44,951 bases of DNA, from contig MHLM01000013.1 in the NCBI GenBank assembly GCA_001821395.1, forward strand, positions 1 through 44,951, in the 5' to 3' direction. How positions within the stretch are numbered: the first letter of the stretch is position 1; the number at the start of each line of letters is the position of its first letter. The position numbers and the translations under genes were made by a program. Below, piece after piece: positions 1-37,535 of the stretch. Origin of the DNA: Candidatus Lloydbacteria bacterium RIFCSPHIGHO2_02_FULL_50_18. Its GTDB lineage: Bacteria > Patescibacteriota > Minisyncoccia > Phycocordibacterales > UBA6899. The notes below the pieces were generated by a model, which was not told the origin of the DNA, ran no database searches, and saw nothing but the letters and a program-made list of their open reading frames with translations.

Positions 1-84
1 TGGCCTATAACACCACCAGTATATCCCGACGGGTATGTTCGTTTTTCGGCTCGCGCCAATAGGAGTTACTGTTGCAATTCAAGG

Positions 85-318
85 TTGAATAAAAGAAGTA
101 ACGCAGAAATATCTCTTTGCGCAACAGAGGGCTGCGGGATGAATCTCGATTTTCTTTTTGCTGATCAGAAGTATCTTACGGTAATGTCCGTTGATCCGGC
201 AGGTGGAGTGGCGGATACGGAGTATGCAGGATATTACGTATGGGTGAGTTCGAACAATCGCATCACCGCCTGTGCCCCCCGCGCTGAACTCGGCGCAGAT
301 ATTTCCGTTACGCGCTAG
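85..318 (+). CDS. hypothetical small protein (start uncertain: TTG at 85 or ATG at 139)
   Basis: Open frame ending with TAG at 316-318. The stop is embedded in a hairpin (307-330) followed by TGTTTTT and a second perfect hairpin, consistent with a real gene end. No recognisable motif. Confidence 0.25.
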   Translation: MNKRSNAEISLCATEGCGMNLDFLFADQKYLTVMSVDPAGGVADTEYAGYYVWVSSNNRITACAPRAELGADISVTR

Positions 319-368
319 TGCTTGCGTAACTGTTTTTAACATAGACCGAATATAAGTTCGGTCTATGT
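307..368 (+). terminator. tandem hairpins (GTTACGC..GCGTAAC at 307-330, then T-run, then 12-bp perfect stem ACATAGACCGAA-TATAA-TTCGGTCTATGT at 339-368)
   Basis: Read directly from the sequence. The first hairpin is followed by TGTTTTT. The second has a 5-nt loop. Confidence 0.4.
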
Positions 369-382
369 TGTATGAATGAATT

Positions 383-1015
383 TTGCATCAGCAAATATCG
401 ACTTCTCATTGTGGACGGCAAATAGTTCTTGACCTGAGGAATTCTTCACGTATGCTGTTTTTAGACAAGATTAAGGAGAAGCACGTGGGATTGTCGTTTC
501 CGATCTTCACATATTTGCATGGAAATACGACGGGAAAGACCACTGGGCAGCTTCGCTACTGCGATGAATCGACGCACCCGCTTACGTGCACGGTCGGTCT
601 TGATGAGTACTGTGCATATGTTCATGAAAACATGCTCGCGCATTGTCAGCTTGTCATTTTTGATGGCTTCATACTCCCGGGCGGGCTTCCTCGTGGGGCG
701 CAAATATTCGATTATGAATATGGACGTAGTACTGATAAGTATCGTACGTACGGAGTAAAGAAGATTCTGCATATCGAGAAGACTGCGACCGTAAAAGGCG
801 GATCGGAATTATCGCCTTCCTTTTGCGAGTACAAAGAGCGCGACATTAATTATGTTCAAGGGGTGACGGTGGTCACATTACGACGGTATATCATCGCGAT
901 CCCTCACGGTCACCGCGTGTTGGGATTTCGAGTCCGACCACGCTCGCTTGATCGTCAGTACACGTCCATCGAAGCAACAAGCAATAACGTTATTTTTCGC
1001 TCAGTTGTGAAATGA
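383..1015 (+). CDS. hypothetical protein (about 187-210 aa; alternative ATG at 452)
   Basis: 210-codon open frame with no recognisable domain. The coding status is uncertain. Confidence 0.3.
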   Translation: MHQQISTSHCGRQIVLDLRNSSRMLFLDKIKEKHVGLSFPIFTYLHGNTTGKTTGQLRYCDESTHPLTCTVGLDEYCAYVHENMLAHCQLVIFDGFILPGGLPRGAQIFDYEYGRSTDKYRTYGVKKILHIEKTATVKGGSELSPSFCEYKERDINYVQGVTVVTLRRYIIAIPHGHRVLGFRVRPRSLDRQYTSIEATSNNVIFRSVVK

Positions 1016-1166
1016 ACAAATACCCGCCATTCAGCGAGTATTTTTTGTGTTATTGAATATTATTGCCGCCTTATGTCCGGATCGTATTCTGCTTCTCCCC
1101 GCGCATGGGGGAGGTGTATGGGGGGGGTGAAGAATTCCCCCACATCGCGATTCGCGGAGAAATAAT

Positions 1167-1206
1167 TATTATCTTAACCTATGCTATAGCATAGGTTAAG
1201 ATAATA
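1167..1206. repeat. 40-bp perfect palindrome (20-bp arms, no spacer), AT-rich
   Basis: TATTATCTTAACCTATGCTA | TAGCATAGGTTAAGATAATA. The reverse complement of the right arm equals the left arm exactly. It lies in the 517-bp gap between convergent genes. Confidence 0.9.
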
Positions 1207-1239
1207 CATTTTGTCACACGTTGCCACCTTTTGTTACCA

Positions 1240-1386
1240 CCAGATGAAGCTCCCCGGGGCAGAGCACGGGGTTTTAATGCCGCATAATAAAAGGTATTAA
1301 ACCTCAGGGCAAGCCCTGGACTCGCAATGAGCTCGCAAAGCCTCGCGCGAGTCCGCGGCAGAGCCGCGGGGTATTGAACCTTTTTT
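1240..1386 (+). ncRNA. candidate small structured RNA or terminator cluster (GC-rich multi-hairpin segment ending in a T6 run)
   Basis: Consecutive perfect short stems: CCCCG-GGCAGAGCA-CGGGG, CAGGGC-AA-GCCCTG, ACTCGC...GCGAGT, and CCGCGG-CAGAG-CCGCGG followed by GGTATTGAACC and TTTTTT at 1381-1386. No match to RNase P, tmRNA or SRP consensus that I could verify. Confidence 0.2.
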
Positions 1387-1532
1387 AGCCCTCCTCGGCT
1401 CGGAAATGAAAAAGAAGAATTTTTCATTTCGCTCACTCTACGTCGGCAATAAAAATTCTCGAGGTCCGGAATCATTGGTCCGAAAGATTGAGACGGGACG
1501 GGCGTAAGCGTGCCCATTTTTATGACGGCTTC

Positions 1533-2891
1533 TCAGCGCTTGATCGCTTGAAGGTAGAGGAAGAGTGGAATCTCTTTGCGGGCATCGTTTTCAGCTTTTG
1601 CACGAGGACCTGAATCGCTCGCTTTGTGAGAGATCCACTCCTCGAGTTTTGTCACGGCAAATCCCGCTTTGGTGAACGCCTTAAAATAGAATTGCAACGG
1701 TCGGTGGAATGATATCGTCTGCGGAGAGTCGGCGAACCCCGGATGCATGTCGATAGCGGTGCTCGAGTTCGAGAGGTACTGATCGATGCGCCGGAATTGC
1801 ACTTTATTCTGGTCATCGTAATCCCACGATGATGCTTTCGGAATGCGGAAGGCGGGGTGATTCATCACGATGTGGAGCTGCCCGCCTTGTGTGAGAACGC
1901 GTGCCGCCTCTTTCATCGTACTCTCGATGTGCTCGATGTTTTGTATCGAGAGGCTGATGAGTGCCTTCGTGAACGTGTCATTATCGAACATCGTCAATTT
2001 GTCGGCGCTTGCGACGTGGTAGGGGATGAGCGGTGATTCTGCTTTAGCGATAGCAATGAGTTCCGGCGCAATGTCCACCCCTTCCACTTTTGCACCCGTT
2101 TTGGCGATCGCGCGCGTGAAAAATCCCTGACCACAGGCGAGGTCGAGAATATTGTCATCGGCTTTTGCGTCGATGAGACGAATCAGATTTGGGAGTATCA
2201 CCTTCTCGTGATAGGTATCCGCTTCGTTTAAATGCTTATCGTACCACGACGCGACCTCGCCCCATGACGCCGATGCGGTTCTCGGTCTATTTGGAATGTT
2301 CGACCTAAACGAAGGCTTTACTCCCTCTTTGTCGCCATGTTTGGTGTATGCTTTTTTCCCGGCAAAGTCCTCGCTCCTTCCGGTTCCAGGCCTAGGGGAA
2401 TACGCTGTCGGCACACCACTGCGAGGCACATAGGGAGTTCTTTTTTCCGCGTATTTACCTTTTTCCATCTTTGATTTTGACCAGGATGTTGATTTTTTTA
2501 CAGGAAAGGCACTGTGCGTGCTACTCTTCACGTAGCCTGCTTTTGTATAAGGTGTGCGAGATTCCGGTCTCCCGCCTATTCCATACGAAGAACGGACAAA
2601 CGGCTTTCGCTCGTCTCCGCCAGTTTCAGGTGTGCGGGGCGTATATGTCTTTTTGATATAGCCTGTTGAGTTTGGTCTTACCGTTGCGCTCGTTACGGGG
2701 GATTTGTAGATATTCGTGATCGTGGGTCGAAAAGACTTCGCACTATTTTTTGCGACATATCCGGAACTTGCCCGTAGCAAGGAGGGTCTTCCTGTTGGCG
2801 TGCCGAATGTTGCCTTTCGGCTAATGTGACGCTTTGAGGTCACATCCCTGTTCTTCGCCCCAACCTTCGGTCCGTATTTTTTCTTTTCCAT
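1533..2891 (-). CDS. class I SAM-dependent methyltransferase with ~290-aa basic, Tyr/Lys/Pro/Thr-rich low-complexity N-terminal extension
   Basis: The C-terminal half carries ILDLACGQGFFT (motif I, GxGxG-like) and a methyltransferase fold. The N-terminus has degenerate repeats (KTYTPRTP, RTPYTKAGY, KRTPYVPRSG, KAYTKHGD). Start is placed at ATG 2891 (MEKKKYGP) to avoid overlap with the upstream deaminase. The frame is open back to 3038. Confidence 0.7.
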   Translation of the reverse strand: MEKKKYGPKVGAKNRDVTSKRHISRKATFGTPTGRPSLLRASSGYVAKNSAKSFRPTITNIYKSPVTSATVRPNSTGYIKKTYTPRTPETGGDERKPFVRSSYGIGGRPESRTPYTKAGYVKSSTHSAFPVKKSTSWSKSKMEKGKYAEKRTPYVPRSGVPTAYSPRPGTGRSEDFAGKKAYTKHGDKEGVKPSFRSNIPNRPRTASASWGEVASWYDKHLNEADTYHEKVILPNLIRLIDAKADDNILDLACGQGFFTRAIAKTGAKVEGVDIAPELIAIAKAESPLIPYHVASADKLTMFDNDTFTKALISLSIQNIEHIESTMKEAARVLTQGGQLHIVMNHPAFRIPKASSWDYDDQNKVQFRRIDQYLSNSSTAIDMHPGFADSPQTISFHRPLQFYFKAFTKAGFAVTKLEEWISHKASDSGPRAKAENDARKEIPLFLYLQAIKR

Positions 2892-2952
2892 TTCGGCATT
2901 CTGACATACATTTGTCAATAAAACAAATCCCCGCGCTAAGGCGGGGTAAATA

Positions 2953-3465
2953 TCATGGATTCCAGTATTTTCCACTATGGAGAATTGACGGTCCGCCGAC
3001 GATGCCATCATACTCGATGATGCTGACACCCGCCTCACGGAGCATCATGTGCGCAATGACGATGTCTGCGCTCCATACCGATTCCGGCGGCGTGCGATCA
3101 TGCGCCTGCTTGTGGATGATAAGCGTTCTGATCCCCTCATCGATGATCTCCTGTGCGCACTCGGTGCATGCAGCCCACGGGCAGACCATCGTTAGTCCGT
3201 CGAAGTGGGGAACATTGTGTGCGCGTCGCGCGGTTCCAAGGGTCGAGCGTTCAGCATGGTGTACTAATTTGTATTTTAGTGCGCGGTCGTTCCACCGTTC
3301 GTCCGAGCTGATCACACCATGCGGGAAACGATTGTGATCGGCACCGAGAATGACTACGTTGTCGCCGATACGGGAGACGACAAGCGCACCATTCTGTGTT
3401 GATGGGTCGGGGCTTTTTGTCGCTTCCACGTATGCCTGCCGAAGCAGCTCTTTCCAAATATCCAT
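2953..3465 (-). CDS. dCMP deaminase / cytidine-deoxycytidylate deaminase family (ComEB-like)
   Basis: HAERSTL ... PCPWAACTECAQEI zinc-binding deaminase signature (H-A-E and P-C-x-x-C). GGAGG sits 6 nt upstream of ATG 3465. Confidence 0.8.
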   Translation of the reverse strand: MDIWKELLRQAYVEATKSPDPSTQNGALVVSRIGDNVVILGADHNRFPHGVISSDERWNDRALKYKLVHHAERSTLGTARRAHNVPHFDGLTMVCPWAACTECAQEIIDEGIRTLIIHKQAHDRTPPESVWSADIVIAHMMLREAGVSIIEYDGIVGGPSILHSGKYWNP

Positions 3466-3601
3466 GCAAACCTCCATTATATAGAGCAAACTTTGTCCAG
3501 TGTAAGGTCGCGCATTGCTTTTGTAGACTACACAAAATTGCAAAATATGCCGTAATGATGTATATTCCTCCTATCGACGCTCGCTTTGCGGGCGTTTAAT
3601 T

Positions 3602-5419
<1,818 letters not shown>

Positions 5420-5769: not shown

Positions 5770-7260
5770 ATGGAAGAAAAAAATAAGCCTGGTGCATACC
5801 GGGCAGGCGGACGACCGTCATATGGCGGTACGCGACGTGCAGTGGTTCTCGGTGGTATTGGTGGAGGCGGTCGCTATGAACCGCCACGCAAGCGCACAAA
5901 GAAAAGTAATTTTATCAGCAATATCGAGCGTGGAGGAGCTCCAGAGGCCCCGCGAACCGAGCGTCCTGCGTCGCACTCTGCGCCATTTGCGCGGCCAGCT
6001 TCTACCCCTCGCAAGTTCGCCCCGCGTTCATCTTCATATTCCTCAAATTCCTCATCACGTGGTACAAGCTCGTTTGGCGGAAGTCGCGGAGGTTTTTCAC
6101 GCGGTGGAAGCGGACGTCCGCAGCAGAAGCGCGGAAATACAAGAAATCCGGGTGAGAATATCGATGTCAATCGTTTTGTGAGTCGCGCAGTCGTAGTCGA
6201 GGAGGAAAAAATTTACGTCCCGACGCATCAGTTCAGCGATCTCAAGATCGAGACGAAGTTAAAAGAGAATATTACGAGAAAAGGTTATTCCATCCCAACT
6301 GCTATTCAGGATCAGTCGATTCCCGAAGTGCTAAAGGGTCGTGATCTTATCGGTATCGCAAATACCGGAGAAGGCAAGACCGCCGCATTTTTGGTGCCAC
6401 TGATCAACAAAATGATGCTTCATCCGGAGAGCCGTGTACTGGTCATTGTTCCGACGCGCGAGCTCGCACTTCAGATCGATGAAGAATTCATGGGATTTGC
6501 GAGGGGGCTCGGCATTTATTCGGTGTTGCTTGTCGGTGGAACGTCGATGGGTATGCAGATCGAGCGCTTGCGCCGTAGAGTGCGCATGGTCATAGGCACA
6601 CCGGGACGTCTCAAGGATCTCGTGGAGCGCGGAGAGCTGAAGCTTGCTGAGTTCGATAACCTCGTACTCGACGAAGCAGATCGTATGCTCGACATGGGTT
6701 TTATCGTGGATATCAAATTTCTCATTGAAAAAATGCCGAAGGAACGTCACACGCTCTTTTTCTCAGCGACATTCTCGCGCGAGATTGAGGACTTGGCACA
6801 CCGCATGCTGCACGACCCTATCCGCATCTCCGTGAAGAAGCAGGACACGGCAAAGAACGTGGAGCAGGACATCATTCGCTTCCGCGAGAAAGGTCAAAAG
6901 TTCGACTTGTTGTGTGACCTCTTGCACAAGTCCGAGTTCAACAAGGTACTCGTCTTCGGACGCACTAAACACGGCGTGGAAAAACTCGGCAAGGATCTCG
7001 CGCAGGCCGGATTCCGTGCCGCTTCGATTCATGGAAACAAGACGCAGCCGCAACGCCAGCGCGCACTTAAGGATTTCAAGGATGATCGTGTTCAGATCCT
7101 TGTTGCAACCGACGTCGCGGCACGCGGACTCGATATTCCGAATGTCTCGCACGTTATTAACTATGAAGTGCCGGGAACCTATGATGACTACGTGCATCGT
7201 ATCGGACGTACCGGACGTGCCGGAAAGAAGGGGGCAGCACTGACATTCGTAGAAGGATAA
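5770..7260 (+). CDS. DEAD-box ATP-dependent RNA helicase with ~130-aa N-terminal RGG/GGS-rich extension
   Basis: Q-motif and GEGKTAAF (motif I), DEAD at LVLDEADRMLD, SAT, HGNKTQPQR, ARGLD and HRIGRTGRAG motifs. The N-terminus is glycine/arginine/serine-rich. Confidence 0.9.
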   Translation: MEEKNKPGAYRAGGRPSYGGTRRAVVLGGIGGGGRYEPPRKRTKKSNFISNIERGGAPEAPRTERPASHSAPFARPASTPRKFAPRSSSYSSNSSSRGTSSFGGSRGGFSRGGSGRPQQKRGNTRNPGENIDVNRFVSRAVVVEEEKIYVPTHQFSDLKIETKLKENITRKGYSIPTAIQDQSIPEVLKGRDLIGIANTGEGKTAAFLVPLINKMMLHPESRVLVIVPTRELALQIDEEFMGFARGLGIYSVLLVGGTSMGMQIERLRRRVRMVIGTPGRLKDLVERGELKLAEFDNLVLDEADRMLDMGFIVDIKFLIEKMPKERHTLFFSATFSREIEDLAHRMLHDPIRISVKKQDTAKNVEQDIIRFREKGQKFDLLCDLLHKSEFNKVLVFGRTKHGVEKLGKDLAQAGFRAASIHGNKTQPQRQRALKDFKDDRVQILVATDVAARGLDIPNVSHVINYEVPGTYDDYVHRIGRTGRAGKKGAALTFVEG

Positions 7261-17750: not shown

Positions 17751-19850
17751 TTATATTCCAAGCAACACCGGTATCACCATCGGCTGCTTCTGTGTCATTT
17801 GGAACAGAAATTTGCCGACCTCATCGCGAACGTCTTCTTTGACGTATTCGAAATTCACCGTCTTCATGTCCCTACTGCACGCATCCTCGACGGTCTTCTT
17901 GATGATCAGTCGTGCCTGATTCAGCAGTTCTTGTGATTCACGCACATACACGAAACCGCGTGCAATGATATCGGGAGACTTCATGAGCCTACCCGTGTGC
18001 ATGTCCACGGTCGCGACAATGACCACGATGCCATCTTCTGCCAGCATTTGGCGGTCACGCAGCACGACCTCCTGTAGGTTGCCGATGGCGAATCCGTCGA
18101 CCATGATATCTTCCTTGGGCGCTGAGACGGAAAGGCGCACCATCTTTGTTCCTTTCTCGCGAATTTCAAGAATAGTGCCGTTGTCCGGAATGATCGCATT
18201 TCCCTTGAGGACGCCTGCAGTCTCAGCGATCTCTGTGTGAGAGCGAAGCATGTAATGGTATCCGTGAAGCGGGATAAAGAACTTGGGGCTGATATGTGAA
18301 ATGATCCATTTTGATTCCTCGCGATATGAATGTCCCGATGAATGCACATCCGATGTTTCATAGTGCACGACATGCGCGCCTTGTCTGGATAACAGGTCTT
18401 TCAGTTTTTGCACTGCTCGTTCGTTTCCCGGGACAACTGATGATGAGAACAGCACCATGTCTCCTTCGCCAATCTTGATATGCTTGTGTTTTTTTTGTGC
18501 AACGCGCATGAGTACTGCGAAGGGGTCTCCCTGTGCGCCGGTGACGAGCATGACAATGCGCTCGGGCGGATAGTTTTCCATTTCCTCGATCGGAATGACC
18601 GTCCCTTTTTTGTATTCGAACAATTTTGCTTTTTGCGCAAGCTCAATATTAGTCTTCATGCTTCTGCCGTCAATCACGACCTTGCGGTTGTGTTTATCAG
18701 CGAATTCGATGATCTTGATGAGGCGTTCAAGCAATGAAGAGAATGTTGCAACGATGACGCGACCATGCGCCTCCTTGATCAACTTCTCGATCGTATGATG
18801 CACGATTGGTTCGGGAATAGAGAATCCCGGTTTCTGGCAATTCGTCGAGTCTGCCATGAGTAACAATGTATTTTCAGTCTTGAATTTCTTGTATTCCTTC
18901 AATTCGTTCGCGGTGGGAATTCCTCCGTCGTGATCAAGCTTCAAGTCACCCGTGTGAACGATGTTACCGTACGGTGTCTCAATGATGATGCCCATTGAGT
19001 CGGGAATCGTGTGGGTAACCTTGAAGAATCGGACCGCGAGATCAGTGAACGAGATGCGCTCATCGGTCTCAACTATTTTCATGTTTATTGGTGCGAGATC
19101 CGGAAATTCATCATGACGTTTCTGGATCAGCATTGCAGTGAGGTTTCTCGCGTAGACCGGAGGGTTTCCCAGCAGCGGAAGAATATATGGCAGGCCCCCG
19201 ATGTGGTCCAAATGGCCGTGGGTGATGAAGATGCCGCGGATCTTGTCTTTGCGTTCCTCGAGGTATTGTGTGTTCGCAAGAATATAATCGACTCCTGGGG
19301 TGTCCTCGTCCTTGAATTTAAAACCGCAGTCGACGATCACGATGTCGTCACCAAATTCCATCGCGGACATATTTCGTCCGATCTCTTCGACGCCTCCAAG
19401 GATCACAATGCGGACATCTCCTGCCGCAAGCGGGGGGATCGCAACCTTCTTTTCTGCGGTCTGTTTGCGCATTTCACGTTCCACAGTGATCGCGTTCCTC
19501 GTATCGTCATAGTGTTTACCCGCTGCGCCTGTTGACTCGCGTCTGCGTTCCGGTCCGCGACTTCCGTGACTGCTGCCTCCGCTTCGTGGGCGTGAGGAGG
19601 AGCCGCGTGAGGGCGCACTGGACACGCTTCTTATCGGGCGTCCGCCTTGCGTACGCACGGGCTGACCGGGGGTTGCACCGCCGGCCCTTGATGGGACAAA
19701 TGCGCGCGCTGCGCCGTGTGTGCGCGTGCGTTGATGTTCTCCACCGGGCCGCACGTAGCTCTGCACGCCGGTCGTGCGCAGTCCCGTCCTCGGTCGCTCC
19801 GGCTGTCCCCCCGGAGACGCCTTTCCTTGGCTGTTGTTTCTTTCATTCAT
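17751..19850 (-). CDS. rnj: ribonuclease J (metallo-beta-lactamase / beta-CASP RNase) with ~140-aa R/G/S/P-rich N-terminal extension
   Basis: HGHLDHIGG motif, beta-CASP region and RNase J C-terminal domain. The N-terminus is low-complexity (RPRSGGSSHGSRGPERRRESTG). Confidence 0.9.
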   Translation of the reverse strand: MNERNNSQGKASPGGQPERPRTGLRTTGVQSYVRPGGEHQRTRTHGAARAFVPSRAGGATPGQPVRTQGGRPIRSVSSAPSRGSSSRPRSGGSSHGSRGPERRRESTGAAGKHYDDTRNAITVEREMRKQTAEKKVAIPPLAAGDVRIVILGGVEEIGRNMSAMEFGDDIVIVDCGFKFKDEDTPGVDYILANTQYLEERKDKIRGIFITHGHLDHIGGLPYILPLLGNPPVYARNLTAMLIQKRHDEFPDLAPINMKIVETDERISFTDLAVRFFKVTHTIPDSMGIIIETPYGNIVHTGDLKLDHDGGIPTANELKEYKKFKTENTLLLMADSTNCQKPGFSIPEPIVHHTIEKLIKEAHGRVIVATFSSLLERLIKIIEFADKHNRKVVIDGRSMKTNIELAQKAKLFEYKKGTVIPIEEMENYPPERIVMLVTGAQGDPFAVLMRVAQKKHKHIKIGEGDMVLFSSSVVPGNERAVQKLKDLLSRQGAHVVHYETSDVHSSGHSYREESKWIISHISPKFFIPLHGYHYMLRSHTEIAETAGVLKGNAIIPDNGTILEIREKGTKMVRLSVSAPKEDIMVDGFAIGNLQEVVLRDRQMLAEDGIVVIVATVDMHTGRLMKSPDIIARGFVYVRESQELLNQARLIIKKTVEDACSRDMKTVNFEYVKEDVRDEVGKFLFQMTQKQPMVIPVLLGI

Positions 19851-34565: not shown

Positions 34566-36500
34566 ATGGCGGATCACACCAAGAAAATATCGATACATAT
34601 CGGCAATTCGAAACCATCTCCTGCCCCTCTGGGGCATAGTAGCGAGCATTTGCGCGCGCATAGTGAGAAAGCAGTGGTACCATCCGCACACACTAAGTCC
34701 AAGTCTTTGATCGTCACTCATGCGCAAAGCGTATTTCCCGAATCATCAAAGTCGGTAAAAACACTGACTCCCGTCAAACTCGCTATCCCCAAAAAACCAG
34801 TCACGATGGAAGGGATTTCCATGAGCACTATCGCTATCGCCTATTTTTGTATGGAGCTCGGCATCGAGCATTCAATTCCCACTTATGCGGGTGGATTGGG
34901 GATCCTTGCCGGTGATACGCTTCGTTCTGCGGCAGATCTCAATGTGGACATGATCGGCATCTCTCTCTTGTATCGAAAGGGATATTTTCGCCAACGTTTC
35001 GATGACTCAGGTTGGCAGATCGAAGAAGATGAGCAGTGGGATCCGACACAAAAGTTGATCCTCCTTCCCGGCCTCGCTGAGGTCACCATCGAAGGAAGAA
35101 TGGTGTTCATTCGCGCATGGCTCTATAAAATGAGCGGAGTGAATGGTCACGTCAATCCGATCATATTTCTCGATACGGATGTCGACGGGAATAGTGAGGA
35201 TGACCGACAGATCACCGCAAAGCTCTACGCGGGTGATCGCAGAATGAGGCTGATGCAGGAAGCGGTTTTGGGAATCGGCGGTTTTCGCATGCTACAGACA
35301 TTGGGAGCGACCAATATCGAAAAATTCCATATGAATGAAGGACACTCCGCACTGCTGACACTTGAGCTCTATCGGAAATATCATGAATACGATGGTCCGG
35401 TCGAAGAGGTAAAGAGCCGAGCCGTTTTTACGACGCATACACCAATTGCGGCCGGTCACGATGTGTTCACTCGAGACCTTGCGCATGCGGTGCTCGGGAA
35501 AGAGTGTATACCGGAAGAGGTTCAGCATTTGGCATTTGTTGACGGGATGTTGCACATGACACATCTTGGGTTTTCTTTTTCCGGCTATCACAATGGTGTT
35601 GCAAAAAAACATAGTGAAGTTACCCGTGAACTTTTTCCGGGCTATCATATTGAATCGATCACGAACGGTGTCCATGCCGGGGAGTGGGTCAGCGCACCGC
35701 TTGCGGTGCTGTTCGATCGCTATATAGCAGGATGGCGCTTTGATGCACATAATCTTCGATATGCCCTCGTGATCCCGGCCGACGAATTACGGTCTGCGCA
35801 TCAAGCGATGAAGGTGCGTTTGTGTGAGTATGTCCACATTTCGGACCCTGCGACCATCTTTGATCCGCAGGTCTTTACGATCGGTTTTGCGCGAAGGGCA
35901 ACTTCGTACAAGCGCGGTAATATGCTTTTTCATGACGTTGAGCGCCTCAAGCGTATCGCCGAAAAAAGCAACGGTATTCAGATCGTCTATGCGGGAAAGG
36001 CGCACCCCGATGATCGCGATGGTAAGCTGATGATGCAAGAGGTCATTCGGCAGATGCGTACTTTTGCCGGATCAAAAGTGAAATGCATCTATCTTCCCAA
36101 CTACGACATGGAGGTGGCTAAGCTCTTGGTCTCTAGTGTGGACCTGTGGCTCAATACTCCCGTGCGTCCCATGGAAGCGTCGGGAACATCAGGAATGAAG
36201 GCGGCAATGAACGGTGTGCCCCATTTTTCTACGCTCGACGGCTGGTGGCTTGAGGGGCATATCGAGAATGTTACCGGCTGGTCTATTGGTCCTCATCCTG
36301 AAGAGGGGAGGAATCGAGATGTCGATGAAGAGGATGCGGACGATCTGTACAAGAAACTTGAGTATGTGATCATACCGCGATTTGAAGATGATCCGCATGC
36401 ATGGGTGAAGATGATGCGCAGTGCTATTGCAATCAACGGTTCGTTCTTTAACACGCAGAGGATGATGGAGCAGTATGTCCTCGGCGCCTACTTCAAGTAG
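34566..36500 (+). CDS. glgP: alpha-glucan (glycogen/maltodextrin) phosphorylase, GT35 short type
   Basis: YFCMELG...YAGGLGILAGD, EGHSALLTLE, TTHTPIAAGHD and EASGTSGMKAAMNGVPHFSTLDGWWLEG (the PLP-site Lys lies in TSGMKA). The first ~80 residues are Lys/Ser-rich and may not all be translated; alternative starts are at 34806 and 34821. Confidence 0.85.
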   Translation: MADHTKKISIHIGNSKPSPAPLGHSSEHLRAHSEKAVVPSAHTKSKSLIVTHAQSVFPESSKSVKTLTPVKLAIPKKPVTMEGISMSTIAIAYFCMELGIEHSIPTYAGGLGILAGDTLRSAADLNVDMIGISLLYRKGYFRQRFDDSGWQIEEDEQWDPTQKLILLPGLAEVTIEGRMVFIRAWLYKMSGVNGHVNPIIFLDTDVDGNSEDDRQITAKLYAGDRRMRLMQEAVLGIGGFRMLQTLGATNIEKFHMNEGHSALLTLELYRKYHEYDGPVEEVKSRAVFTTHTPIAAGHDVFTRDLAHAVLGKECIPEEVQHLAFVDGMLHMTHLGFSFSGYHNGVAKKHSEVTRELFPGYHIESITNGVHAGEWVSAPLAVLFDRYIAGWRFDAHNLRYALVIPADELRSAHQAMKVRLCEYVHISDPATIFDPQVFTIGFARRATSYKRGNMLFHDVERLKRIAEKSNGIQIVYAGKAHPDDRDGKLMMQEVIRQMRTFAGSKVKCIYLPNYDMEVAKLLVSSVDLWLNTPVRPMEASGTSGMKAAMNGVPHFSTLDGWWLEGHIENVTGWSIGPHPEEGRNRDVDEEDADDLYKKLEYVIIPRFEDDPHAWVKMMRSAIAINGSFFNTQRMMEQYVLGAYFK

Positions 36501-36626: not shown

Positions 36627-37535
36627 ATGATGAGAGTAATGACAAAGCTTGAAGAACGACTATTCGCCAATGTCGATTATGCGTTTCTGCGCAGTGTCAG
36701 TGGATCGCCAGCTGAGATTCAGGCGGTGCTTGATCGCATCAGCGATATGCTCTGCGACGATATTGATCCGATACAGCTCCTGGCGCACAATCGTGTCGTG
36801 TACGAGGAGACGGCCCTTCAGTATGCGCAAAATACGGAGCATGAGCATATACCCGACGCCCTGATTGCTTTTATGAACAAGCTTCGTAATAACGACATGG
36901 TGCTTGATATTGGTTGTGGAACCGGTCGTGATGCGGTCTTTATGGCGATCAGCGACCGAACGCTTCGGAAATGTTTCATGGGAAGGATGAAGGACGGCAA
37001 GGCGGCACATGAACGTTTTGGTATTCCAAGGAAATCCTTCTTCGCGCTCGGTATCGATGCATCGCCGGGGATGGTGCGGTCCGCGACGGCATTCGCTGAA
37101 GCTCATGGGCTTACTCGTCGGGGGGGCGAAGCACCTCGTGCAGAATTTCTCTGTGAGATAGCCGATATGCATTTTCTCAGAACGGTCGAAACCGTAGAGG
37201 GCTTATTTGATGGAGTATGGTCTTCAGCTGCGCTTTTCATGCATACGCCGCAGCAATGCATCGCACCAGCGTTGGAAGGTGTAGCACACGTGCTTCGTCG
37301 CGGCGGTGTCTTTGGTGTGAGTTATTTCAACAGTCCCATTGGTGTCTCTTACAACAATCTGCGTTACTCACGAACGGGCGAGATCAAATATTTTTCCCGC
37401 CCACAATCCGCACAGATCGTTCTTGCTGCCGAGTCAGCCGGACTGTGTTTGATCGAGGAGTCATTGTCCGATCTTGAAATGGCCGGAACGTTGAAAAAAG
37501 ACTTCTTCATCTCGCAGCTATTTCGAAAAAAATAG
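36627..37535 (+). CDS. class I SAM-dependent methyltransferase
   Basis: VLDIGCGTGRDA motif I. AGGAG lies upstream of ATGATG. Confidence 0.75.
   Translation: MMRVMTKLEERLFANVDYAFLRSVSGSPAEIQAVLDRISDMLCDDIDPIQLLAHNRVVYEETALQYAQNTEHEHIPDALIAFMNKLRNNDMVLDIGCGTGRDAVFMAISDRTLRKCFMGRMKDGKAAHERFGIPRKSFFALGIDASPGMVRSATAFAEAHGLTRRGGEAPRAEFLCEIADMHFLRTVETVEGLFDGVWSSAALFMHTPQQCIAPALEGVAHVLRRGGVFGVSYFNSPIGVSYNNLRYSRTGEIKYFSRPQSAQIVLAAESAGLCLIEESLSDLEMAGTLKKDFFISQLFRKK

Follow-up and report, generated by a model that had tools for sequence, protein, structure and literature searches.

The window analyzed here comprises positions 1 to 44,951 of contig MHLM01000013.1 of Candidatus Lloydbacteria bacterium RIFCSPHIGHO2_02_FULL_50_18, a member of the Patescibacteria, and our subject is a gene on its minus strand that encodes a class I S-adenosylmethionine (SAM) methyltransferase preceded by a long, basic N-terminal tail. 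The tail is predicted to be intrinsically disordered, and comparison with homologs indicates that it is translated and under purifying selection; with moderate confidence, we suggest that it binds polyanions in a multivalent, low-specificity manner, with RNA as the most probable ligand, and would thereby tether the methyltransferase to a large RNA. The protein is 100% identical to the NCBI protein A2845_01210 (Candidatus Lloydbacteria), there annotated as a hypothetical protein. An earlier note, made from the letters of this DNA alone, had drawn attention to the tail; its observation was largely right, once size and wording are corrected, and its interpretation is supported in part only. The features of the gene, with the evidence on which they rest, are as follows (pN and pS, proportions of nonsynonymous and synonymous differences).

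1533 to 2891, minus strand: methyltransferase coding sequence, 452 codons plus stop, ATG at 2891 (open reading frame [ORF] list, Pfam match)
2277 to 2891, minus strand: tail, residues 1 to 205, predicted disordered, polycationic, with evenly spaced aromatics (composition, AlphaFold2, pN/pS, motif statistics)
2799 to 2891, minus strand: island 1, residues 1 to 31, M-E-K-K-K-Y-G-P-K...R-D-V-T-x-K-R-[YH]-[IV]-x-R-K-A-x-F-G, 94% amino acid identity at pS 0.89
2634 to 2681, minus strand: island 2, residues 71 to 86, VRPNSTGY[IV]KKTYTPR (VRPxxTGYVKKTYTPR across homologs), with Y78 and K80 invariant
2457 to 2498, minus strand: island 3, residues 132 to 145, KKSTSWSKSKxEK, in which Met142 is not conserved
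2259 to 2318, minus strand: junction island, residues 192 to 211, KP[SV]F[RK]S..PN[RK]PRTASASWG (KPVFKSVVPNKPRTASASWG), running into the first catalytic helix
1533 to 2276, minus strand: catalytic domain, residues 206 to 452 plus stop, class I SAM methyltransferase with a C-terminal beta-rich lid (Pfam, AlphaFold2, matches in the PDB)

Composition, start codon, and selection on the tail

The earlier note had credited the tail with ~290 residues and two thirds of the protein, but the measured length is about 205 residues, corresponding to 45% of the 452-residue product. The basic Tyr/Lys/Pro/Thr-rich character described there is borne out by the composition (in percent, K 13, S 12, T 11, P 10, G 9, R 9, and Y 6), with an isoelectric point (pI) of 10.7 and a net charge of +34. 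Every 40-residue stretch across residues 2 to 217 contains at most 15% hydrophobic residues and carries a net charge of at least +5, and hydrophobic or amphipathic segments are absent from it. Disorder prediction, which had been proposed as a check, pointed in the expected direction: in the AlphaFold2 model, the predicted local distance difference test score (pLDDT) is below 50 for residues 1 to ~200, with no helix or strand before residue 207, and the tail is therefore predicted to be intrinsically disordered.

The degenerate repeats reported for the tail exist as peptides and not as tandem repeats of DNA. In particular, the peptides that had been quoted are present and a short motif recurs, with Y[TSV]PR occurring 3 times (residues 83, 154, and 164) against 0.046 expected and [YF][TVI][PK][RKASH] 6 times against 0.33 expected, counts that none of 20,000 composition-preserving shuffles of the tail reached; Tandem Repeats Finder (score of at least 30) detected no DNA tandem arrays between positions 1400 and 3100. 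Furthermore, the gaps between the 19 aromatic residues of the tail are more regular than expected by chance (coefficient of variation, 0.44; P = 0.0005). No RGG tripeptide was found on reading the tail, where R and G account for only 9% each and K, S, T, and P dominate, and the lack of RGG clusters led us to reject a glycine/arginine-rich (GAR) domain of the fibrillarin type. When the tails of this enzyme and of the two other tailed enzymes of the window discussed below, a DEAD-box helicase and RNase J, were searched alone against Pfam (E value of up to 10), nothing was returned except a meaningless SR-25 match for the helicase tail; a resemblance of the KYGPK..K..RD island to the N terminus of uS4 was considered and dropped, given the lack of any Pfam match of the tail at that threshold. 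A search of the tail alone against 1.84 billion representative proteins found only 3, all consistent with orthologs of the methyltransferase.

The earlier note had also argued that the frame is open for 501 codons and hence coding. The region is indeed coding, as the comparison of pN with pS indicates, but the gene comprises 452 codons. The open frame on the minus strand, from 3038 to 1533, counts 501 codons from a GTG, and 49 of them precede the true start, ATG 2891. These 49 codons overlap, in another frame, the 3' end of a dCMP-deaminase-like gene (2953 to 3543) and also span a terminator-like hairpin at 2929 to 2946, whereas all close homologs start at the equivalent of ATG 2891 (18 homologs, by alignment), with N termini that read MEKKKYGPK or M-x-K-x-x-ERKYGPK; for these three reasons, the upstream codons were excluded from the gene. 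Within the tail, the sole in-frame ATG is that of Met142, and an internal start at this position was ruled out since the residue is not conserved among the aligned homologs.

With respect to the closest homolog (protein P0002, encoded at locus L087), synonymous sites are saturated (pS of 0.77 to 0.89). In the tail, pN is 0.21 versus a pS of 0.77; in the first 31 codons, it is 0.027 versus 0.89; and in the catalytic domain, it is 0.066. The tail changes about 3 times faster than the catalytic domain, yet it is clearly constrained in frame. Moreover, an alignment of 19 homologs (alignment A1) revealed the four conserved islands listed above, separated by indel-rich linkers; pLDDT climbs at the junction island. 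The low pN at saturated pS and the conserved islands together show that the tail is translated and under purifying selection.

Catalytic domain and distribution of the tail

Residues 206 to 452 (247 residues; pI of 6.3) form a class I SAM methyltransferase with a Rossmann-like alpha/beta fold, as the earlier note had recognized. Residues 248 to 340 match Methyltransf_11 (PF08241; E value of 1.5e-15, 58.1 bits versus a cutoff of 21.2) and Methyltransf_25 (PF13649; E value of 4e-14, 53.5 bits versus a cutoff of 27). SAM-binding motif I reads LDLACGQGFF; among 116 sequences, G254 and G256 are invariant, D250 and D273 are at least 90% conserved, and the domain has 39 invariant columns in all. AlphaFold2 models residues 205 to 452 with a pLDDT of 85 to 99 as alternating strands and helices, and a Foldseek structure search returned more than 1,400 methyltransferase matches in the PDB at an E value of up to 0.001.

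The best solved relatives are 3bkw from Mesorhizobium loti (sequence E value of 8e-15; Foldseek E value of 9e-18, template modeling score of about 0.73 on the target) and 3g5l from Listeria monocytogenes, both uncharacterized methyltransferases from structural genomics, together with ToxA and natural-product methyltransferases. The catalytic domain is only 22 to 26% identical to 3bkw, 3g5l, and ToxA; unlike the window enzyme, they have no tail, and ToxA acts on a small molecule. Several more specific identities were considered and rejected. The name UbiE/MenG quinone C-methyltransferase, given to homologs by the Joint Genome Institute, is contradicted by a TIGR01934 score of 61.9 bits versus a cutoff of 158.35, and every PRK00216 equivalog is also far under its cutoff. 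Likewise, the characterized rRNA and tRNA methyltransferases score far too low (RlmD, 27 bits versus 458; RlmA, 26 versus 303; Erm, 20 to 22 versus 212 to 500), and the match to RlmA (1p91; E value of 1.5e-4) is confined to the SAM-binding region. To count the methyltransferase, which has no match to a characterized RNA methyltransferase, among the "three RNA-metabolism enzymes" of the earlier note was an assumption.

Orthologs of the catalytic domain occur in more than 551 species representatives of Patescibacteria, and the N-terminal extension of most is shorter than 30 residues. Long tails, of about 100 to 230 residues, are found in a Lloydbacteria-related clade (loci L001 to L018); close orthologs of the window protein carry the tail, and a comparison of ortholog lengths, suggested in the earlier note as a safeguard against an assembly artifact, speaks against such an origin. 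Among 120 metagenomic homologs, the extension ranges from 0 to 321 residues, and nearly all extensions of at least 20 residues are basic (pI of about 10 to 12). A hidden extension in the tailless ortholog L005 was considered and rejected, as stop codons lie upstream.

The same catalytic domain (57 to 89% identity) bears tails of differing sequence according to clade: K/T/S/P/Y rich in the window, RPYTPR repeats in P0035 and P0033, a KPSYGA type in P0042, P0044, and P0057, tandem [RK]PSFGDR repeats of 200 to 320 residues in P0100, P0101, and P0109, and a short P/K-rich type. A KPPRT-like junction beside the catalytic domain recurs across these types, suggesting a single short extension in the ancestor, expanded later on. 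The tail of P0109 (L088, positions 6211 to 6705) is encoded by a 159-bp (53-codon) DNA tandem repeat, present in 3.1 copies at 90% identity and giving rise to the [RK]PSFGDR peptides, in which we see a recent in-frame expansion that would show how such tails grow; by comparison, the window tail looks like an old, degenerated product of tandem duplication. It is possible to hypothesize, then, that tails grow by in-frame tandem duplication of motif-coding units and subsequently diverge, with charge and aromatic pattern being kept and sequence not. The catalytic domains of tailed proteins are somewhat less basic than those of tailless ones (mean charge, +1.5 versus +3.9), a somewhat compensatory relation between tail and catalytic domain.

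The tail could be thought of as a neutral low-complexity expansion, i.e., functionless sequence made by slippage and tolerated by the cell, and the fast turnover of its length and sequence, the frequent indels, the recent 159-bp duplication in one lineage, and its absence from most orthologs all fit such an origin. However, pN in the tail is far under pS, four islands are kept, one of them 94% identical at saturated synonymous divergence, nearly all the sampled extensions of at least 20 residues are basic whatever their sequence type, and the aromatic spacing is nonrandom, and we consider this explanation very unlikely. Hardly any credence can be given to the further idea, raised in the earlier note, that translation begins downstream and that the tail region is an untranslated leader. 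In its favor, ATG 2891 has no preceding Shine-Dalgarno sequence, and a reading of an upstream TTGACA as a -35 box, with a spacer of 17 nt, would put the start of transcription just within the ORF. On the other hand, amino acids are kept while synonymous sites are scrambled, the frame is open and every indel is in frame across many homologs, and the first in-frame ATG comes only at residue 142, with a Met that is not conserved; the Shine-Dalgarno sequence is missing from most window genes, and several -10-like boxes 6 to 9 nt before ATG fit leaderless mRNAs. Both explanations are disfavored by the selection data.

Neighboring enzymes and candidate functions of the tail

Three other genes of the window bear on the function of the tail.

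3602 to 5419, plus strand: BipA/TypA GTPase, the conserved divergent neighbor of the tailed methyltransferase in related genomes
5770 to 7260, plus strand: DEAD-box RNA helicase; residues 1 to 150 (5770 to 6219) are a basic G/R/S-rich tail of about 140 to 150 residues
17751 to 19850, minus strand: RNase J; residues 1 to 140 (19431 to 19850) are a basic R/G/S-rich tail of about 120 to 140 residues

Both tailed enzymes, noticed from the sequence alone, were identified by profile, and their N-terminal tails proved to be as basic as described. The helicase tail includes an SRGGFSRGG-type stretch, and orthologous helicase tails have the common motifs TRRAVVLGGIGGGGRYEPPRKRTKKSNFI and RNPGENIDVNRFV; wherever a locus with a tailed methyltransferase includes the helicase, the latter has a tail as well, of 96 to 172 residues. 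The unusual GC richness ascribed to the RNase J tail was likewise recovered (64% GC at 19430 to 19850 versus 49% in the rest of the gene), and 90 of the 120 closest RNase J homologs have a basic N-terminal extension of at least 60 residues. Long, basic, low-hydrophobicity segments occur in 3 of the 30 window proteins, namely, the methyltransferase, the helicase, and RNase J; TlyA, BipA, and a second methyltransferase (36627 to 37535) have no such basic segment. In a census of 700 ORFs of at least 200 residues from ~80 patescibacterial loci, they were found on this methyltransferase, the helicase, RNase J, and one sigma-70 factor, in addition to two weaker cases and some spurious ORFs. Thus, in the window and in these loci, long basic tails are essentially limited to nucleic acid enzymes.

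The sigma-70 factor, encoded at L018 (10957 to 12327, minus strand; regions 1.1 to 4), has an N-terminal K/A/V/T/P-rich tail of ~100 residues that matches the histone H1-like HC2 profile with an E value of 1.8e-8, below the Pfam cutoff. In the window, a glycogen-phosphorylase-like ORF shows at its N terminus (34566 to 34810, plus strand) an S/K/P-rich stretch of ~80 residues before its first conserved residues, which may be due to a miscalled start or may be a fourth, weaker extension.

The earlier note had gone on to propose a shared module. As a common sequence element, this was not upheld: local alignment of the methyltransferase tail with the helicase or RNase J tail is no better than with shuffled sequences (z of about 0.5), the former is K/T/S/P/Y rich and the latter two are R/G/S rich, and the search with the methyltransferase tail alone had returned 3 proteins only, all consistent with its orthologs. 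The helicase and RNase J tails gave a Smith-Waterman score of 102 versus 51 ± 9 for shuffled sequences (z of 5.5), which could come from their patchy S/R/G composition or from a weak arrangement in common. With no resemblance of the methyltransferase tail to the other two beyond composition, and with a tail-only search whose hits were all consistent with methyltransferase orthologs, the three tails appear to share a physicochemical class and not a module.

In at least 12 genomes (L001 to L018 and L088), the tailed methyltransferase is divergent from BipA, and in the tailed lineages the order is methyltransferase, divergent BipA, and then tailed DEAD-box helicase, often with TlyA; in the window, the dCMP-deaminase-like gene is inserted between methyltransferase and BipA. 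The BipA neighborhood is retained even in the distant PSFGDR-type clade (L088).

The reading that we modestly favor is that the tail is a polyanion-binding tether. It is built from short conserved aromatic-basic peptides (Y-[TSV]-P-R, Y-[TVI]-K, K-Y-G-P-K, and S-W-S-K-S-K) set between indel-rich linkers; contacts to phosphates would be made by Lys and Arg, and stacking on bases by the Tyr, Phe, and Trp residues at their regular intervals. The target of the tether would plausibly be rRNA or ribosome assembly intermediates, and the arm would raise the local concentration of the enzyme and perhaps aid RNA remodeling. In the model, it would meet the catalytic domain at the N-terminal helix beside the active-site entrance; in the structural relative ToxA, the N-terminal Tyr7 was targeted by crystallized point mutants. 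We infer the RNA ligand, the ribosome biogenesis context, and the tethering mechanism: the indirect evidence that points to RNA or the ribosome is the strong conservation of the family in metabolically minimal bacteria, a tail type seen on nucleic acid enzymes, and the synteny with BipA, helicase, and TlyA.

Several observations weigh against this reading. Most orthologs function without a tail, which is therefore accessory. No NCBIfam model reaches its own cutoff on the methyltransferase, and the catalytic domain, which is slightly acidic in the window protein (net charge of -2.4), shows no sign of an RNA substrate, its nearest relatives being uncharacterized or small-molecule enzymes. A polycationic tail would have no less affinity for DNA, polyphosphate, or acidic lipids than for RNA. 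Across 81 loci, the neighborhood is not conserved outside the tailed clade, where the recurrences were weak (5 loci with a downstream RsmE-like gene and 6 with a YchF-like one, both genes identified by eye and not by profile); since the BipA/helicase synteny and the tail are both clade specific, their association is confounded by phylogeny.

Some of these points lend weight to an alternative in which the methyltransferase acts on a small molecule, a lipid, or a protein and the tail anchors it to DNA or the nucleoid, to polyphosphate, or to the acidic inner face of the membrane. Structurally, the enzyme is closest to small-molecule methyltransferases, its catalytic domain lacks a basic character, the short P/K/A-rich tails of other clades resemble histone H1-like DNA-binding tails, and the sigma-70 factor of L018 carries an HC2-like one. 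We nevertheless consider such targeting unlikely, in view of a family that is highly conserved (the 39 invariant columns mentioned above) and occurs in over 550 species of bacteria with a minimal metabolism, of tailed forms that adjoin ribosome assembly genes, and of a tail with no hydrophobic or amphipathic segment. Slightly better placed, although still doubtful, is the possibility that the tails of methyltransferase, helicase, and RNase J co-assemble with RNA in a phase-separated body for RNA processing or ribosome biogenesis, a condensate or degradosome scaffold of which the methyltransferase would be a client or co-scaffold. These three proteins, and only these, of the 30 in the window have long basic disordered tails, the tails of methyltransferase and helicase occur together in every tailed locus examined, and the helicase and RNase J tails are similar in an order-dependent manner (z of 5.5). 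The aromatics of the methyltransferase tail are evenly spaced, a pattern associated with phase-separating low-complexity domains. Elsewhere, disordered regions of bacterial helicases form condensates (PMC11260450; doi 10.64898/2026.09.17.752289), the Helicobacter pylori degradosome consists of RNase J and a DEAD-box helicase (bioRxiv 10.1101/2021.08.09.455701), and the N-terminal disordered region of its RNase J is the suspected driver of foci (PMC10700544). The methyltransferase tail, however, is unrelated in sequence to the other two (z of about 0.5) and to any other family, the RNase J tails have a much wider distribution than those of the methyltransferase, so that the three do not behave as one evolutionary unit, and the z of 5.5 may only mirror patchy S/R/G composition.

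It is also possible to imagine, although we hold it to be improbable, a nucleolus-like condensate that organizes ribosome biogenesis and RNA processing in the Lloydbacteria-related clade, with polycationic tails having been added independently to several enzymes, i.e., the methyltransferase, the neighboring helicase, RNase J, and, in one related locus, the basic-tailed sigma-70 factor. Selection on charge and on even aromatic stickers, and not on sequence, would then account for the unrelated tail types (RPYTPR, PSFGDR, and P/K rich) on one ortholog in sister clades. A link with cold habitats is possible, as several tailed genomes seemingly come from glacier-fed streams or groundwater, to judge from the names of their records.

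Among methyltransferases, the closest analogs would be the tail of Bud23 and the GAR domain of fibrillarin. Bud23/WBSCR22, the 18S rRNA 7-methylguanosine methyltransferase, likewise combines a Methyltransf_11-type domain with a basic disordered extension, and its lysine-rich extension is presumed to contact preribosomal RNA. Its tail is C terminal and short (about 70 residues), whereas that of the window enzyme is N terminal and ~205 residues long, and the homology seen is that of the general class I fold; the Trm112-bound Hvo_0019 is one among many similar fold matches of the catalytic domain. Fibrillarin (Nop1) is likewise a SAM methyltransferase with an N-terminal basic, disordered, low-complexity domain, and its GAR domain binds RNA and supports nucleolar condensation. 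In contrast, the window enzyme is of the Methyltransf_11 type with no match to the fibrillarin domain, its tail has Y-x-P-R and Y-x-K motifs in place of RGG repeats, and it is not known to have a guide ribonucleoprotein context. The evolution of fibrillarin has been reviewed (PMC7608942).

For the other two enzymes, the nearest cases are bacterial. In RNase J of H. pylori, which partners with a DEAD-box helicase, the disordered N-terminal extension is described as Helicobacter specific and spans 132 residues (PMC10700544), close in length to the ~120 to 140 residues found here; unlike the H. pylori extension, the RNase J tails are widespread in Patescibacteria (the 90 of 120 homologs given above) and presumably independent. 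In RhlE1/RhlE2 and CsdA, basic C-terminal disordered regions enhance RNA binding and phase separation and take part in adaptation to cold as well as in ribosome biogenesis (PMC11260450; doi 10.64898/2026.09.17.752289), and CsdA condensates organize ribosome biogenesis (doi 10.64898/2026.09.17.752289). Different from these C-terminal regions, the tail of the window helicase is N terminal, and the same kind of appendage is borne by a methyltransferase.

An emerging theme in bacterial RNA organization is the basic disordered tail, known from RNA helicases and RNases, and here the device is seen on a methyltransferase of minimal-genome bacteria; our literature search turned up no work on disordered regions of Patescibacteria or of the Candidate Phyla Radiation. 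One ortholog occurs with no tail, with short tails, or with long tails that differ in sequence, nearly all of them positive and the long ones examined having aromatics every few residues. The family thus offers a natural evolutionary series for asking whether selection in a disordered region sees charge, valence, and patterning rather than sequence. The family is present in over 550 patescibacterial species, and both its tail and the BipA/helicase/TlyA neighborhood suggest the ribosome as the first place to look for a substrate. Should the tethering and condensate readings both be wrong, the finding would amount to a lineage-specific low-complexity extension of modest interest.

Upstream element and flanking regions

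Two features lie directly upstream of the methyltransferase gene.

2892 to 2921, minus strand: promoter-like element TTATTGACAAATGTATGTCAGAATGCCGAA, directly abutting the ATG, conserved in L001 and L007 to L009 and unique in the window
2929 to 2946, minus strand: terminator-like hairpin between the dCMP-deaminase-like gene and the putative methyltransferase promoter, with an equivalent hairpin in L007

The 30-nt element (TTATTGACAAATGTATGYCAGAATGCCGAA) is almost identical in five genomes despite scrambled synonymous sites. It holds an extended -10-like sequence, TGTCAGAAT (TGyCAGAAT), that ends 6 nt before the ATG; as a whole, it resembles the promoter of a leaderless mRNA, although its conserved TTGACA lies only 9 nt from the -10-like box. 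A Shine-Dalgarno sequence is absent from most of the 25 window genes checked, and TATAAT-like boxes are found 6 to 9 nt before the ATG of TlyA, a spermidine-synthase-like gene, the DEAD-box helicase, and others (e.g., starts 7526, 40536, and 5770). The -10-like box 6 nt before the ATG and the same pattern at other window genes make a leaderless methyltransferase mRNA likely, and they suggest that leaderless transcripts are common in this organism.

Downstream of the methyltransferase, the interpretation of window positions 1 to 1532 as a degraded cation ATPase, the gene found at this place in relatives, was discarded after comparison. This part of the window includes a perfect 40-nt palindrome at 1167 to 1206 (TATTATCTTAACCTATGCTATAGCATAGGTTAAGATAATA), located in a stretch of ~1.5 kb devoid of a convincing long gene and showing no DNA match in related loci. 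An ORF at 383 to 1015 (plus strand) has no Pfam match but is probably a real conserved hypothetical gene, its homolog lying directly downstream of the methyltransferase in L010 (32% identity over 171 residues; E value of 7e-28).

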